Translations under genes and position numbers: made by a program
In this document: positions 2,491 through 32,908 of the stretch, one piece after another
How the letters are laid out: each line of letters opens with the position of its first letter
Position numbering within the stretch: the stretch's first letter is position 1
From: Escherichia coli
Lineage (GTDB): Bacteria; Pseudomonadota; Gammaproteobacteria; Enterobacterales; Enterobacteriaceae
Direction: 5' to 3' (one strand)
DNA: 64,000 nucleotides
Assembly (NCBI RefSeq): GCF_030013205.1
Contig: NZ_CP122648.1
Notes under the pieces: model-generated
What the model was told of the DNA's origin: nothing
What the model saw: the letters and a program-made list of their open reading frames with translations, nothing else
Database searches by the model: none

Positions 2491-3048
2491 TTAATTACCC
2501 TTCTTCTGTGCCGGGGTCTGGCCTTTGTTGTTTTTGTCCTGCAGCTGCGACGGCACCAGAACGGTGGTTACGCGCTTACCTTTGTCGCTGAAAGCCTGCA
2601 TTTTCTGCTCTTTCACCAGGTAAGTGATCTTATCGCCCTTAATGTTGCTATCGACCTGCTGCAGATAAGCATTACCCGTCAGAACGACAAAATCTTTTGC
2701 CAGTTCGTAGTGCATCTGGGAAGCGTGACCTTCAACGGGTTTACCATTGTCCTGCATCTGGTAGAACGTTGCCGGTTTACCGTAGCCGTCAATCACTTCT
2801 TTACCTTGTTCGCCGCCCGGACGGGTAACGACCACTTTGTCGGCATTAATTTTGATGGTGCCCTGGGTGACGATGACATTACCGGTAAAGGTAACCACGT
2901 TGCCTTGCATATCAAGAGATTGCTGGTCCGATTCAATGTGGATCGGCTGATCAGTGTCTCCGGTTACGGCAAATGCCGGAATGCTGGCGGCCAGAAGTGA
3001 GCTGGCAAGCACAAGATTAAGGCTGAGTTTGTTTGTTTTGAATTTCAT
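2491..3048 (-). CDS. lptA: LPS transport periplasmic protein LptA
   Basis: ORF 2491..3069 trimmed to the internal Met giving MKFKTNKLSL and the known 185 aa length. Confidence 0.9.
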   Translation of the reverse strand: MKFKTNKLSLNLVLASSLLAASIPAFAVTGDTDQPIHIESDQQSLDMQGNVVTFTGNVIVTQGTIKINADKVVVTRPGGEQGKEVIDGYGKPATFYQMQDNGKPVEGHASQMHYELAKDFVVLTGNAYLQQVDSNIKGDKITYLVKEQKMQAFSDKGKRVTTVLVPSQLQDKNNKGQTPAQKKGN

Positions 3049-3592
3049 AGGATGTTCTAACCTTTTCAATCAGCTCGGCGTTCTTGCTGCGTAAGTTGCC
3101 GCGCATTTTCAGACCGCTGGAGTTAAATGTTGTTCCGTATAACGTGACGAGGTCTTCAGAGGTAACATCCTGCGTCACCAGATTGATCTGCGCGTTATCC
3201 GTCGTGATTCTGCGAAGTTGAGAGTCCGGCACAAGTGCGTTGACTTCAACGTGTCCATATAAATAGAGCATCCGGTCATTGGTCAGCTTGGCTTTATCTG
3301 CTTTTACGGACCATGTCGGGATTTTATCCTTATCAAACGTGGTAAGTACCGGCTGCGTAAACCACGAAACGGCCTGATCGGAATAATATTCAACATGTTG
3401 AGCAATCAATCGATAGCTTAGTGCCCCTTCTGGGTTATAGACGAGCGTGTCCGTATGCTCGCTTTTATAGGTGGGATCATTGTTGTTGACGACCACCTGG
3501 GCGGTATCGTCTTTTTCGGCCATATTAATGCCGATCATCACCAGAACCGCCAGTGATAGCACAATGATAACCCAACGTCTGGCTTTACTCAT
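3017..3592 (-). CDS. lptC: LPS export system protein LptC
   Basis: 191 aa ORF with N-terminal membrane anchor; 3' end overlaps the lptA start by 32 nt. Confidence 0.9.
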   Translation of the reverse strand: MSKARRWVIIVLSLAVLVMIGINMAEKDDTAQVVVNNNDPTYKSEHTDTLVYNPEGALSYRLIAQHVEYYSDQAVSWFTQPVLTTFDKDKIPTWSVKADKAKLTNDRMLYLYGHVEVNALVPDSQLRRITTDNAQINLVTQDVTSEDLVTLYGTTFNSSGLKMRGNLRSKNAELIEKVRTSYEIQNKQTQP

Positions 3593-4155
3593 ATCGATTG
3601 CCCTTTGGCTTCATCCAGTTTGCCCTGCGCCAGGAGTAATAAGTCGCAAACTTCACGCACTGCACCACGACCGCCAGCAATGCGCGTCACGTAATCGGCG
3701 CGCGGGAGCAACAGTGGATGCGCATCGGCCACGGCGACGCTTAAACCCACTTTTTCCATTACCGGCCAGTCGATGAGATCATCGCCGACATAAGCCACAT
3801 TTTCCGGGGCAATCGCCAGTTTTTCCAGCAAATCGCTAAAGGCGATCAGTTTGTTTGACTGCCCCTGATACAAGTGAGTGATCCCCAATGTGGCACAACG
3901 ATCTTCTACCAGTTTAGCCTTTCGCCCGGTAATGATAGCGACTTCAATATCAGAGGTGAGCGCACAACGAATGCCATAACCGTCACGAACATTGAACGCT
4001 TTCAGCTCTTCGCCATTATTGCCCATATAAATCAGGCCATCTGACAGTACGCCATCGACATCGAGGATCAGCAGACGAATGTTCTCTGCTTTTGCTATAA
4101 CGTCGGCGCTGACAGGGCCGTAACAGGTCGCAAGCGACGCACCTGCTTTGCTCAT
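3589..4155 (-). CDS. kdsC: KDO 8-phosphate phosphatase
   Basis: 188 aa ORF, HAD-family motif DVDGVLSDG; 4-bp overlap with lptC start. Confidence 0.9.
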   Translation of the reverse strand: MSKAGASLATCYGPVSADVIAKAENIRLLILDVDGVLSDGLIYMGNNGEELKAFNVRDGYGIRCALTSDIEVAIITGRKAKLVEDRCATLGITHLYQGQSNKLIAFSDLLEKLAIAPENVAYVGDDLIDWPVMEKVGLSVAVADAHPLLLPRADYVTRIAGGRGAVREVCDLLLLAQGKLDEAKGQSI

Positions 4156-4175
4156 TGTTGTTTATCCTTGAATCT

Positions 4176-5162
4176 TTACACTACGCCTGCACGCAGTAAA
4201 TCATGCATATGTAACACACCGAGTAAATGGTCGCCATCGGCAACCATCACGGAGGTGATATGGCGGGACTGCATTAAGTTCAGTGCCTCAACGGCCAGAA
4301 TGCCAGGGCGCACGCGTATTCCCCCCGGCGTCATAACATCGGCAATACTTAACTGACGAACATCCACGCCCATATCGAAGACACGGCGTAAATCACCGTC
4401 GGTAAAGATGCCTTCAATCATCATATTGTCATCGCAAATGACAGTCATACCAAGATTTTTGCGGGTAACTTCCAGCAATGCGTCACGCAGACTGGCCGTT
4501 TTCTTAACATGCGGGATCTCATCGCCCGTATGCATAATATCGTTTACGCGCAGCAGAAGTTTACGACCCAGTGCGCCGCCTGGATGTGAGAGCGCAAAAT
4601 CTTCGGCAGTAAAGCCGCGTGCTTTTAACAGCGCGACAGCGAGGGCATCGCCCATAACCAGCGTGGCGGTGGTGCTGCTGGTCGGTGCCAGCCCTAACGG
4701 ACAGGCTTCTTTCGCTACTTTAACACACAGATGAACATCTGCGGCGCGCGCCATGCTGCTCTCCGGGCGACCGGTGATGCAGATTAACGGTACGTGAAGA
4801 CGCTTAAGCACTGGAATTAAGGCCGTGATTTCGCTGGATTCACCTGAGTTAGAGATAGCAATCACCACATCCTGTGGGGTGACCATGCCTAAATCACCAT
4901 GCGCGGCTTCACCAGGATGGACGAAAAATGAAGGTGTACCGGTGCTGGCAAACGTTGCCGCCATTTTGCGCCCAATATGCCCCGATTTCCCCATCCCCAT
5001 GACGACAACTTTCCCTTTACACCAGAACATCTTTTCACAGGCAAGCGTGAAATTCTGATTGATGTATTGATCAAGCTCCGCCAGGCATTCACGTTCAATC
5101 GCCAGGACTTCTTTACCTGCTTGCTGAAAGTCAAAACCCGGTTGTAACTCTACGTGCGACAT
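4176..5162 (-). CDS. kdsD: D-arabinose 5-phosphate isomerase (SIS plus CBS domains)
   Basis: ORF 4176..5183 trimmed to MSHVELQ start (328 aa). Confidence 0.9.
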   Translation of the reverse strand: MSHVELQPGFDFQQAGKEVLAIERECLAELDQYINQNFTLACEKMFWCKGKVVVMGMGKSGHIGRKMAATFASTGTPSFFVHPGEAAHGDLGMVTPQDVVIAISNSGESSEITALIPVLKRLHVPLICITGRPESSMARAADVHLCVKVAKEACPLGLAPTSSTTATLVMGDALAVALLKARGFTAEDFALSHPGGALGRKLLLRVNDIMHTGDEIPHVKKTASLRDALLEVTRKNLGMTVICDDNMMIEGIFTDGDLRRVFDMGVDVRQLSIADVMTPGGIRVRPGILAVEALNLMQSRHITSVMVADGDHLLGVLHMHDLLRAGVV

Positions 5163-5175
5163 AATGCGTTTCCAG

Positions 5176-6153
5176 TTATTCAACGAGTATTGGCGATAAC
5201 CAGTACAACATCGCCAGCCATACGATAAATCCGCCAGTTAATAATACCCCTACACCACGGCCCGATTGCGGGGAGCGCCGCCAGCACAGCAACGCAAAAA
5301 TAATGCTCACCAGCAACATCACGCTGTAGTCACGACTGTACGCCAGTGGATCAATCTCTCCTGGCGTTATCAGCGCGGGTAAACCCAACACGATGACAAT
5401 ATTAAAAATGTTTGCGCCAATGATATTTCCGACAGCAATGTCGTTTTCACCTTTGCGAACCCCCGCTATTGCGGTTGCCAGTTCCGGCAGGCTGGTTCCG
5501 ATAGCAATTGCCGTCAGCCCCATCGTCAACTCGCTGATGGCAAAGTAATTCGCCAGCACCGTGGCGTTATCAACCACCATCCGCGTGGCCACTGGCATGA
5601 TGATAAGCGCAATGCCGAGCCATAAAAACGCGACGGGCAATCCACCTTCACGCGGCAGCTCTGCAAGCTGCTCTCTGGTCAGACTGTCAGTCCCCTGACG
5701 TTCAGCCTGACGTGCAAGTTTAACAATGAACAGCAGCCATAGCACAGCCAGAAAGAGGAGAAAGATACCATCGCTGCGACTAAGTTGTCCGTCATAGAGT
5801 ACGGAACCGGCCACCACGCTGACCAACAACATTAAGGGTAATTCACGGCGTAGAACATCAGAATGGACGGTAAAAGGACGAACCAGCGCAGCCAGACCGA
5901 GGATCAGCAATATATTGATAATGTTTGAGCCGAGGGCTGTACCAACGGCTAAATCGCGTTGTTCGTGCAGAGACGCGGCAAGCGAGACGATGATTTCTGG
6001 TAACGATGTACCAATACTGACCACCGTCATGCCGATGATCAGCGGCGGGATGCCAAAGGTTCGGCAAAGAATAGACGCGGCAAAAACCAGGCGGTCGGCA
6101 CTGTAAACGACCAAAAGTAAACCAACAATTAACAGTGCCGTAGCTAAAAGCAT
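5176..6153 (-). CDS. yrbG: Putative Na+/Ca2+ antiporter family inner membrane protein
   Basis: 325 aa strongly hydrophobic ORF with duplicated GTSLPE motifs. Confidence 0.85.
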   Translation of the reverse strand: MLLATALLIVGLLLVVYSADRLVFAASILCRTFGIPPLIIGMTVVSIGTSLPEIIVSLAASLHEQRDLAVGTALGSNIINILLILGLAALVRPFTVHSDVLRRELPLMLLVSVVAGSVLYDGQLSRSDGIFLLFLAVLWLLFIVKLARQAERQGTDSLTREQLAELPREGGLPVAFLWLGIALIIMPVATRMVVDNATVLANYFAISELTMGLTAIAIGTSLPELATAIAGVRKGENDIAVGNIIGANIFNIVIVLGLPALITPGEIDPLAYSRDYSVMLLVSIIFALLCWRRSPQSGRGVGVLLTGGFIVWLAMLYWLSPILVE

Positions 6154-23550: not shown

Positions 23551-23777
23551 AGCGTTATATAGCTGGCTAAAAAGGCGGCGATTGTCGCCTTTTTTCTCAG
23601 CGAACACATCGGTTTTGCTGTTTTTTTCCGCAGTTGATACAATGCGATAAAATTGCCCTTGCGAAGGTCATTCGCTTTGGTTAGTATTCACACCCGCTTC
23701 AGTGGGAAAGATTAAAAATTCCCGCTTTATTGGTTGAAGCATTGGTACGCGGCAACTCCGCAAGGAACAGGTTGATT

Positions 23778-27991: not shown

Positions 27992-28068
<77 letters not shown>

Positions 28069-28182
28069 CTTTAGTCCTTTTTCAAATATACTGTGAAGAC
28101 TTCGGCCTTCGTAGTGGGATTTGAAAAAATCCTTCTGGAAAGTGCTCCAGACCGCAGTTGCGGTTATAGGGTTCAGTTATAT

Positions 28183-28208
28183 AAAGCCCCGATTTATCGG
28201 GGTTTTTT
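28183..28208 (+). terminator. Hairpin terminator/attenuator between metY and rimP
   Basis: AAAGCCCCGATTTATCGGGGTTTTTT. Confidence 0.7.
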
Positions 28209-28267
28209 GTTATCTGACTACAGAATAACTGGGCTTTAGGCCCTTTTTTTATGTCTTGGGGGTGGGC

Positions 28268-28720
28268 TTGTCCACATTAGAGCAAAAATTAACAGAGATG
28301 ATTACTGCGCCAGTTGAGGCCCTGGGTTTTGAACTGGTTGGCATCGAATTTATTCGCGGTCGCACATCCACACTGCGCATCTATATTGATAGTGAAGATG
28401 GCATCAATGTTGATGATTGTGCTGATGTGAGCCACCAGGTAAGTGCTGTGCTGGATGTTGAAGATCCCATCACCGTTGCTTATAACCTGGAAGTCTCCTC
28501 ACCGGGTCTCGATCGCCCACTGTTCACGGCTGAACACTACGCCCGTTTCGTCGGAGAAGAGGTGACTCTGGTTCTCCGCATGGCGGTACAAAACCGTCGT
28601 AAATGGCAGGGCGTTATCAAAGCGGTAGACGGTGAAATGATCACAGTTACCGTCGAAGGTAAAGATGAAGTGTTCGCGCTGAGTAATATCCAGAAGGCGA
28701 ACCTGGTTCCCCACTTTTAA
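28268..28720 (+). CDS. rimP: Ribosome maturation factor RimP
   Basis: 150 aa protein [10 protein letters not shown]...; the start fitting the known length is a TTG codon at 28268 (ORF track begins at an upstream ATG, 28256). Confidence 0.85.
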
Positions 28721-28747
28721 TAGTCTGGATGAGGTGAAAAGCCCGCG

Positions 28748-30235
<1,488 letters not shown>

Positions 30236-30259
30236 TAAACTGTAGCAGGAAGGAACAGC

Positions 30260-32908
30260 ATGACAGATGTAACGATTAAAACGCTGGCCGCAGAGCGACA
30301 GACCTCCGTGGAACGCCTGGTACAGCAATTTGCTGATGCAGGTATCCGGAAGTCTGCTGACGACTCTGTGTCCGCACAAGAGAAACAGACTTTGATTGAC
30401 CACCTGAATCAGAAAAATTCAGGCCCGGACAAATTGACGCTGCAACGTAAAACACGCAGCACCCTTAACATTCCTGGTACCGGTGGAAAAAGCAAATCGG
30501 TACAAATCGAAGTCCGCAAGAAACGCACCTTTGTGAAACGCGATCCGCAAGAGGCTGAACGCCTTGCTGCGGAAGAGCAAGCCCGTCGTGAGGCAGAAGA
30601 ATCGGCTAAACGCGAGGCGCAACAAAAAGCTGAACGTGAGGCCGCAGAACAAGCTAAGCGTGAAGCTGCTGAACAAGCGAAACGTGAAGCTGCGGAAAAA
30701 GACAAAGTGAGCAATCAACAAGACGATATGACTAAAAACGCCCAGGCTGAAAAAGCCCGCCGTGAGCAGGAAGCTGCAGAGCTCAAGCGTAAAGCCGAAG
30801 AAGAAGCGCGTCGTAAACTCGAAGAAGAAGCACGTCGCGTTGCTGAAGAAGCACGTCGTATGGCGGAAGAAAACAAATGGACTGATAACGCGGAACCGAC
30901 TGAAGATTCCAGCGATTATCACGTCACTACTTCTCAACATGCTCGCCAGGCAGAAGACGAAAGCGATCGTGAAGTCGAAGGCGGCCGTGGCCGTGGTCGT
31001 AACGCGAAAGCTGCGCGTCCGAAGAAAGGCAACAAACACGCTGAATCAAAAGCTGATCGTGAAGAAGCACGCGCAGCAGTACGTGGCGGTAAGGGCGGAA
31101 AACGTAAAGGTTCTTCGCTGCAGCAAGGCTTCCAGAAGCCTGCTCAGGCCGTTAACCGTGACGTTGTGATCGGCGAAACCATCACCGTTGGCGAACTGGC
31201 GAACAAGATGGCGGTTAAAGGCTCTCAGGTCATCAAAGCGATGATGAAACTGGGCGCAATGGCAACCATCAACCAGGTTATCGATCAGGAAACCGCACAG
31301 CTGGTTGCTGAAGAGATGGGCCACAAAGTTATCCTGCGTCGTGAAAACGAGCTGGAAGAAGCGGTAATGAGCGACCGTGACACGGGTGCAGCGGCTGAAC
31401 CGCGCGCGCCGGTTGTGACCATCATGGGTCACGTTGACCACGGTAAAACCTCTCTGCTGGACTACATTCGTTCAACGAAAGTGGCCTCTGGCGAAGCGGG
31501 CGGTATTACCCAGCACATTGGTGCATACCACGTTGAAACTGAAAACGGCATGATCACCTTCCTGGACACCCCGGGGCACGCCGCGTTTACTTCAATGCGT
31601 GCTCGTGGTGCGCAGGCAACGGACATCGTAGTCCTGGTTGTTGCTGCCGACGACGGCGTAATGCCGCAGACCATCGAAGCAATCCAGCACGCGAAAGCGG
31701 CGCAGGTTCCGGTGGTCGTTGCAGTGAACAAGATCGATAAACCAGAAGCCGATCCGGATCGCGTTAAGAACGAACTCTCCCAGTACGGCATCTTGCCGGA
31801 AGAGTGGGGCGGTGAAAGCCAGTTCGTACATGTGTCTGCGAAAGCGGGTACTGGTATCGATGAGCTGCTGGACGCTATCCTGCTGCAGGCGGAAGTTCTG
31901 GAACTGAAAGCGGTACGTAAAGGCATGGCGAGCGGTGCGGTTATCGAATCCTTCCTCGATAAAGGTCGTGGTCCGGTTGCTACCGTTCTGGTACGTGAAG
32001 GTACTCTGCACAAGGGCGATATCGTTCTGTGTGGCTTCGAATACGGTCGTGTTCGTGCGATGCGTAACGAACTGGGTCAGGAAGTGCTGGAAGCGGGTCC
32101 GTCCATTCCGGTGGAAATCCTCGGCCTGTCCGGCGTTCCGGCTGCGGGTGATGAAGTTACCGTTGTACGTGACGAGAAGAAAGCGCGTGAAGTTGCACTC
32201 TATCGTCAGGGTAAATTCCGCGAAGTTAAACTGGCGCGTCAGCAGAAATCTAAACTCGAGAACATGTTCGCCAACATGACCGAAGGCGAAGTTCACGAAG
32301 TGAATATCGTCCTTAAGGCAGACGTACAGGGTTCTGTGGAAGCTATCTCCGACTCCTTGCTGAAACTGTCTACTGACGAAGTTAAAGTGAAGATCATCGG
32401 TTCTGGCGTAGGTGGTATCACCGAAACCGACGCTACCCTGGCTGCGGCGTCCAACGCCATCCTGGTTGGCTTCAACGTACGTGCTGATGCCTCTGCACGT
32501 AAAGTGATTGAAGCGGAAAGCTTGGATCTGCGTTACTACTCCGTCATCTATAACCTGATCGACGAAGTGAAAGCGGCAATGAGCGGTATGCTGTCTCCGG
32601 AACTGAAACAACAGATTATCGGTCTGGCGGAAGTTCGTGACGTATTCAAATCACCGAAATTTGGTGCCATCGCAGGTTGTATGGTTACCGAAGGTGTGGT
32701 TAAACGTCACAACCCGATCCGCGTTCTGCGCGACAACGTGGTTATCTACGAAGGCGAGCTGGAGTCCCTGCGCCGCTTCAAAGATGACGTTAACGAAGTC
32801 CGTAACGGTATGGAATGTGGTATCGGCGTTAAGAACTACAACGACGTCCGCACTGGCGATGTGATCGAAGTATTCGAAATCATCGAAATCCAACGTACCA
32901 TCGCTTAA
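30260..32908 (+). CDS. infB: Translation initiation factor IF-2
   Basis: 882 aa; GTP-binding motifs GHVDHGKTS and DTPGH; Glu/Ala/Arg-rich N-terminal repeats. Confidence 0.95.

Follow-up and report, generated by a model that had tools for sequence, protein, structure and literature searches.

Results

The infB gene and its operon

The window analysed here, a 64-kb stretch of Escherichia coli DNA, carries the same metY-rimP-nusA-infB-rbfA-truB operon as K-12, and the order nusA-infB-rbfA-truB known from the IF2 operon is evident both from the open reading frames and from the annotation. The tRNA gene metY (27992-28068) is followed by rimP (28268-28720), nusA (28748-30235, plus strand) and, directly downstream of nusA in the same operon, by infB (30260-32908, plus strand), whose coding sequence of 882 codons was identified by its Pfam domains and by its match with an annotated gene, and encodes IF2-alpha (IF2-1). 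The product of nusA binds Domain I of IF2-alpha (PMC12297416). At the DNA level infB is 100% identical to the gene of E. coli ETEC4079 (protein WP_000133055.1). The protein scores above the Pfam cut-offs for two IF2_N domains, IF2_assoc, GTP_EFTU, EF-G_D2, IF-2 (PF11987) and GTP_EFTU_D2, and is an ordinary member of the IF2 family in its enterobacterial long form. The gene and the domains are the same as those of K-12 IF2 (infB b3168, NP_417637.1; 890 aa; isoforms IF2-1/alpha, IF2-2/beta and IF2-3/gamma), and the internal GTG and ATG starts are shared as well.

The infB gene of MG1655 (NC_000913.3, 3313342-3316014) is 2673 bp long and encodes 890 aa, which bears out the original prediction that the window gene, with its 882 codons, is eight codons shorter than that of K-12. 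The same prediction attributed the difference to one in-frame 24-bp event within the N-terminal repeat tract (30540-30720), quoted a repeat peptide that is indeed present in the infB translation, and proposed a pairwise alignment with MG1655 infB as a check. We ran this alignment, and the global comparison of the two DNA sequences contains a single 24-bp gap together with 38 nucleotide substitutions; the gap falls inside the tract, with its junction at 30569-30582. The GTPase domains, expected to be undisturbed, are intact according to Pfam, and so are the C-terminal domains. With respect to K-12 IF2, codons 104-111 (AEEQAQRE, or another placement that is equivalent) are missing from the window, whose protein matches the common 890-aa form in every other residue.

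Anatomy of the deletion junction

From the full-length infB allele of 118UI the window allele differs in pairwise alignment by the same 24-bp gap and by 0 substitutions. The single mismatch between these two alleles seen in a multiple alignment is spurious, since it arises from the placement of the gap beside gene nt 309 and is absent from the pairwise alignment. The full-length allele reads GCGGAAGAGCAAGC-GCAGCGTGAA-GCGGAAGAGCAAGC, i.e. a perfect 14-bp direct repeat with a spacing of 24 bp, and because of this repeat the placement of the gap is ambiguous, with 15-16 equivalent positions, the extremes being gene nt 309/310-333 and 324-347 (K-12 numbering). Full-length alleles carry copies of GCGGAAGAGCAAGC at gene nt 310 and 334, and the junction in the window consists of the sole kept copy (30569-30582, plus strand), within which the exact breakpoint is ambiguous. 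The kept 24-bp unit (30569-30592, plus strand) encodes AEEQARRE at codons 104-111 and the lost unit AEEQAQRE, the 16 residues at K-12 codons 104-119 being reduced to AEEQARRE. The 5' side of the junction is abutted by a synonymous T at gene nt 309 (30568, plus strand), which is common to the full-length 118UI allele; in MG1655 and in all other deletion-bearing alleles examined this position is an A.

On the same strand, TRF recognised an imperfect tract with a 24-bp period at 30587-30701 (4.8 copies, 74% matches), formed by octads of the type (A/K)REA(A/E)EQ. It includes two tandem 24-bp units that encode EQAKREAA twice, at 30647-30694 (plus strand), referred to hereafter as site B. A second repeat block, also on the plus strand, is localised at 30788-30871 and combines a 24-bp period (30788-30837) with a 21-bp period (30824-30871). 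A separate repeat search of the tract gave families that match the TRF results.

Origin and age of the deletion

The window, with the 25 kb around infB, is 100% identical to E. coli ETEC4079, a strain from pig faeces in Belgium, and the sister strains of the ETEC4079 series span ~30 more bases over the same 25 kb. The sister strain ETEC4069 has a full-length infB of 890 aa, and over the whole 64-kb window ETEC4079 and ETEC4069 show four differences, namely two SNPs, a 7-bp deletion and the 24-bp infB deletion. The sole two SNPs are found at 23562 (G/A, in the glmM-secG intergenic region) and 60157 (G/T, near the 5' end of agaS). Because ETEC4069 is full-length and just four differences separate it from ETEC4079 in 64 kb, the deletion must be very recent.

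Concerning its polarity, Salmonella IF2 (database protein P0009) has both octads, so that two copies represent the ancestral condition. An insertion in K-12, instead of a deletion in the window, was considered and rejected, given that Salmonella, >99.8% of E. coli and the sister strains all have two units. We infer that the window holds a derived deletion of recent date in the ETEC4079 lineage, in a common infB allele that is unaltered elsewhere.

Recurrence of the deletion

When 5,425 complete E. coli genomes were searched with a 100-nt query across the junction, three gave an ungapped match: ETEC4079, N18-04097 (human, Canada) and Z1323PEC0008 (cat, Korea). KE58 ranked high in the same search, yet its infB is full-length. 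When infB DNA is compared, five or more SNP backgrounds are seen to bear the deletion. The one-copy gene of N18-04097 shows 0 SNPs with respect to the full-length MG1655 allele, the window gene has the 118UI background, and the full-length MG1655 and 118UI alleles are 38 SNPs apart, which argues for independent recurrence (homoplasy) of the event. Furthermore, the window gene is separated by 30-44 SNPs from the Shigella-type one-copy alleles and by 38-43 SNPs from the other one-copy alleles of E. coli, and since the T at nt 309 is replaced by A in all other one-copy alleles examined, the deletion in the window can be considered an event of its own. The SNP backgrounds indicate that the same deletion arose repeatedly.

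The exact 882-aa protein is already present in the databases as RefSeq WP_000133055.1 and UniProt IF2_SHIFL, where it is named Shigella flexneri IF2. The one-copy protein is the standard IF2 of this organism, and no fewer than 1000 contigs and 6,595 index blocks were found to contain it, CP000036.1 being one of the records. All 882 residues of IF2_SHIFL are identical to those of the window protein and the same 24-bp unit of the same repeat is missing; the DNA background, however, differs by 30-44 synonymous-type SNPs, and the window allele thus had an origin of its own, on the background of a pig ETEC strain of E. coli. Among Shigella-type genes the one-copy allele occurs on two backgrounds that are 22 SNPs apart, and its fixation in Shigella lineages could be due to drift or to selection.

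Copy number at the junction and at neighbouring sites

Slippage forecasts gains of the unit besides losses, and a three-copy allele was searched for with a synthetic query and then found, with a 100% match, in six complete E. coli genomes. As annotated, infB measures 2697 bp (898 aa) or 2721 bp (906 aa) in these genomes, and the genes belong to at least two SNP backgrounds. The junction site consequently exists with one copy in 3, three copies in 6 and two copies in ~5,416 of the 5,425 genomes. The longest IF2 observed, of 906 aa, is that of M15 and SY033 (human gut, South Korea; infB at 2519-5239 of the compared loci), in which both the AEEQAQRE site and the AEQAKREA site (site B) have three copies on a MG1655-type background.

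Other E. coli carry three units at site B in ~9 genomes and one unit in ~5-7. In E. coli Nissle 1917 (record NZ_CP007799.1) the site-B one-copy query matched over its full 117 nt, ungapped and with 95.7% identity, which suggests that the infB of this record has lost a unit in a somewhat shifted register or else was assembled differently. Two database variants, P0010 (882 aa) and P0006 (883 aa), have lost one unit within the 30788-30871 block; unit losses at the third and fourth repeat sites are known from database proteins alone and stand outside the complete-genome counts. A wider 600-nt query covering gene nt 201-800 matched 5,361 genomes at >=99% identity, 62 at 95-99% and 2 at 90-95%, so that length variants in this region amount to at most 64 of the 5,425 genomes (1.2%).

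The lengths found among the variants (882, 883, 890, 898 and 906 aa) are all in frame, the units being of 24 or 21 bp. A phase-variable contingency locus acting as an on/off switch was rejected, as all units are multiples of three and no frame shift takes place. Because every variant keeps the frame, the locus is to be classed as a coding VNTR rather than a phase-variation switch, and the junction site behaves as a small VNTR of this kind, with one-, two- and three-copy alleles in E. coli.

Consequences for the IF2 protein

The internal start of IF2-2 (beta), a GTG at 30707-30709 (plus strand; codon 150 here and 158 in K-12), is intact and lies 125 nt past the junction, and that of IF2-3 (gamma), an ATG at 30728-30730 (plus strand; codon 157 here and 165 in K-12), is likewise intact. 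These are the starts affected by the start-codon mutations g474c and t494c (PMC3334882). Since both are found downstream of the deletion, only IF2-1/alpha is shortened.

Pfam places the site of the deletion past IF2_assoc (residues 56-94) and ahead of the second IF2_N domain. An AlphaFold (AF2) model was built from the single sequence without alignment, and the secondary structure alone was taken from it. The model predicts the N1 subdomain, β-strands at residues 58-71 and 79-92, and then a continuous helix from 96 to 208, with a pLDDT >90 over residues 110-200. Residues 96-208 are 53% charged and 24% Ala, and contain 36 i/i+4 pairs of opposite charge and just 8 hydrophobic residues. Thus the segment is rich in E, R and K, has i/i+4 pairing and low hydrophobicity, and is predicted to be helical, resembling the ER/K-type single α-helix linkers; the likeness is one of composition and prediction alone, and a literature search for papers on charged single helices naming IF2 gave nothing usable. 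A review of the NMR work describes residues 98-157 of IF2 as helical, with a repetitive and mostly hydrophilic sequence, in a mobile region (PMC4611024). The solved structures comprise the 2-50 subdomain (1ND9) and full-length chains in cryo-EM entries. Domain I of IF2-alpha binds NusA through residues 1-50 and the strands at 57-90, and the remainder of the domain has been described as a long flexible linker (PMC12297416).

The eight residues are lost close to the beginning of the hydrophilic, repetitive helix, which serves as a tether from the NusA-binding module (residues 1-90) to the body that binds the ribosome. By standard helix geometry, eight residues would correspond to ~2.2 helical turns or, if the segment is helical, ~12 Å; in terms of length they are ~7% of the ~107-residue linker. 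Specific functions have been assigned to IF2-1 when DNA is damaged or the temperature is low (PMC3334882), and IF2-alpha participates in genome maintenance and in adaptation to new media (PMC3334882, PMC12297416). A large functional effect is unlikely, because only ~7% of the linker is lost and the allele is fixed in Shigella, and a neutral or nearly neutral outcome is expected because IF2-beta, IF2-gamma, the catalytic domains and the reading frame are all unaffected. Judged from the sequence, the effect of the deletion is probably near neutral. The original description of the change as benign is plausible, considering that the product is the standard IF2 of Shigella flexneri and occurs on at least 1000 contigs.

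A second small deletion in the operon

The 7-bp deletion revealed by the strain comparison removes CCCTTAG at 28072/28073, between metY and rimP and 4 nt past the 3' end of metY, the initiator tRNA gene. Direct comparison located CCCTTAG in ETEC4069, N18-04097, Z1323PEC0008, KE58, BS74R-D and XJ5.2, and among the 5,425 complete genomes its deletion is private to ETEC4079. RNA folding of the common allele predicts a long hairpin 3' of metY with an extra lower stem, CACUUUCC/GGAAAGUG, underneath it (MFE -38.4 kcal/mol, z -3.4); in the predicted fold of the deletion allele the lower stem is gone (MFE -31.3 kcal/mol, z -2.4). RNase III excises the metY product from the operon transcripts, and processing sites have been mapped in the operon (PMC6511841). 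On the basis of the folding, it is possible that the 7-bp deletion affects transcript processing.

The stretch from metY to infB (27992-32908) holds two of the four differences between ETEC4079 and ETEC4069, both of them small deletions and 2.5 kb apart. According to a rough estimate, the chance of two such deletions falling so close is ~8%. Their closeness may be a coincidence; a common cause, or selection acting on the operon, could also lie behind it.

Discussion

The evidence as a whole is best explained by a recent repeat-mediated loss of one 24-bp unit by slippage, with a near-neutral product, and we consider this explanation highly probable. In the proposed mechanism the two perfect 14-bp direct repeats (GCGGAAGAGCAAGC), 24 bp apart in the 5' part of infB, would misalign, most likely through slipped-strand mispairing during replication, and one of the two tandem 24-bp units would be lost with one copy kept in the ETEC4079 lineage. 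The length of the deletion equals the repeat spacing, one repeat copy is kept, and copy number varies both ways in the population. The perfect repeat, the loss of exactly one spacing, the single kept copy, the reciprocal triplication and the recurrence on unrelated SNP backgrounds together constitute the anatomy of slippage, and lend support to the slippage in the repeat tract invoked originally; from the sequence, this is the most likely mechanism. Unequal sister-strand exchange, single-strand annealing and similar routes that act through repeats would leave a sequence indistinguishable from that of slippage.

Deletions between short direct repeats by slipped-strand misalignment were reportedly described in classic studies of spontaneous deletions in lacI. 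As in infB, in the lacI-type deletions the lost segment together with one repeat copy equals the repeat spacing, one copy is kept, reciprocal duplications occur and the event recurs. Unlike those cases, the infB unit is a multiple of three and lies in an essential gene within a linker that is repetitive and dispensable, and for this reason the product is viable and persists as a polymorphism.

Alternatively, the deletion might not belong to the natural strain, having entered the ETEC4079 genome through an error of sequencing or assembly or as a variant of laboratory culture. In the window's own strain it rests on one assembly, it is found in ETEC4079 alone among near-identical sister strains, a second private deletion of 7 bp, absent from all other complete E. 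coli, lies 2.5 kb upstream, and assemblers can collapse tandem repeats. However, four events with respect to ETEC4069 in 64 kb, with no homopolymer indels, do not correspond to an error-prone assembly, a collapse is unlikely for a two-unit repeat of 48 bp, far below any read length, and the identical allele is shared with two further complete E. coli genomes and thousands of assemblies from Shigella, so that we regard an artefact as very unlikely. Import of the 882-aa allele by homologous recombination from a deletion-bearing Shigella or E. coli donor might be suggested by the identity of the window protein with Shigella IF2 and by the frequent recombination of E. coli. The absence of SNPs with respect to full-length 118UI, against the 30-44 and 38-43 that separate the window gene from the Shigella-type and from the other E. 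coli one-copy alleles, the background-specific T at nt 309 that abuts the junction, and the identity of the flanking DNA with that of the sister strain ETEC4069 all speak against such an import, which is barely credible; in the particular case of Shigella it was rejected on the SNP backgrounds.

A further proposal is that the length of the IF2-alpha linker is functionally tuned, the one-, two- and three-copy alleles altering the reach of the N-terminal module and being selected, for instance, in Shigella. The variable site does fall in the segment that tethers the NusA-binding module (1-90) to the body, IF2-alpha has the specific roles in genome maintenance and in adaptation to new media mentioned above (PMC3334882, PMC12297416), and the one-copy allele occurs on the two Shigella-type backgrounds already described; yet two copies are kept in 99.8% of complete E. 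coli, the variants are scattered singletons from varied hosts, and the eight residues belong to a linker that the literature considers flexible and of which they make up ~7%. Such tuning of the linker is highly improbable. We give equally little credit to its extended form, in which octad copy number would act as a selectable dial for the reach of the NusA-binding module from ribosome-bound IF2, with one copy favoured in Shigella and sporadically in E. coli, and in ETEC4079 maybe coupled to the 7-bp metY-rimP deletion. Recent slippage with a near-neutral product is retained as the explanation of the allele.

The 882-aa allele is already catalogued, as a Shigella flexneri protein, and the mutational mechanism is a textbook one. 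Our literature search found no paper on E. coli infB length polymorphism and none mentioning ETEC4079. What the present study adds is the exact junction, the recency and the recurrence of the deletion, the series of one-, two- and three-copy alleles, and the isoform and linker context. The significance for biology at large is small, and despite the lack of a prior description of E. coli infB length polymorphism in the literature searched, the change is ordinary and not a new kind of thing. In practical terms, an IF2 of 882 aa ought not to be marked as truncated or wrongly annotated, and the length of infB is a poor marker of common descent, because identical indels recur independently. The one-, two- and three-unit alleles, together with the neighbouring sites, represent natural linker-length variants for testing the proposed coupling between IF2-alpha and NusA. 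Small in-frame differences in copy number occur, within a repetitive linker, even in a gene that is essential and highly conserved.
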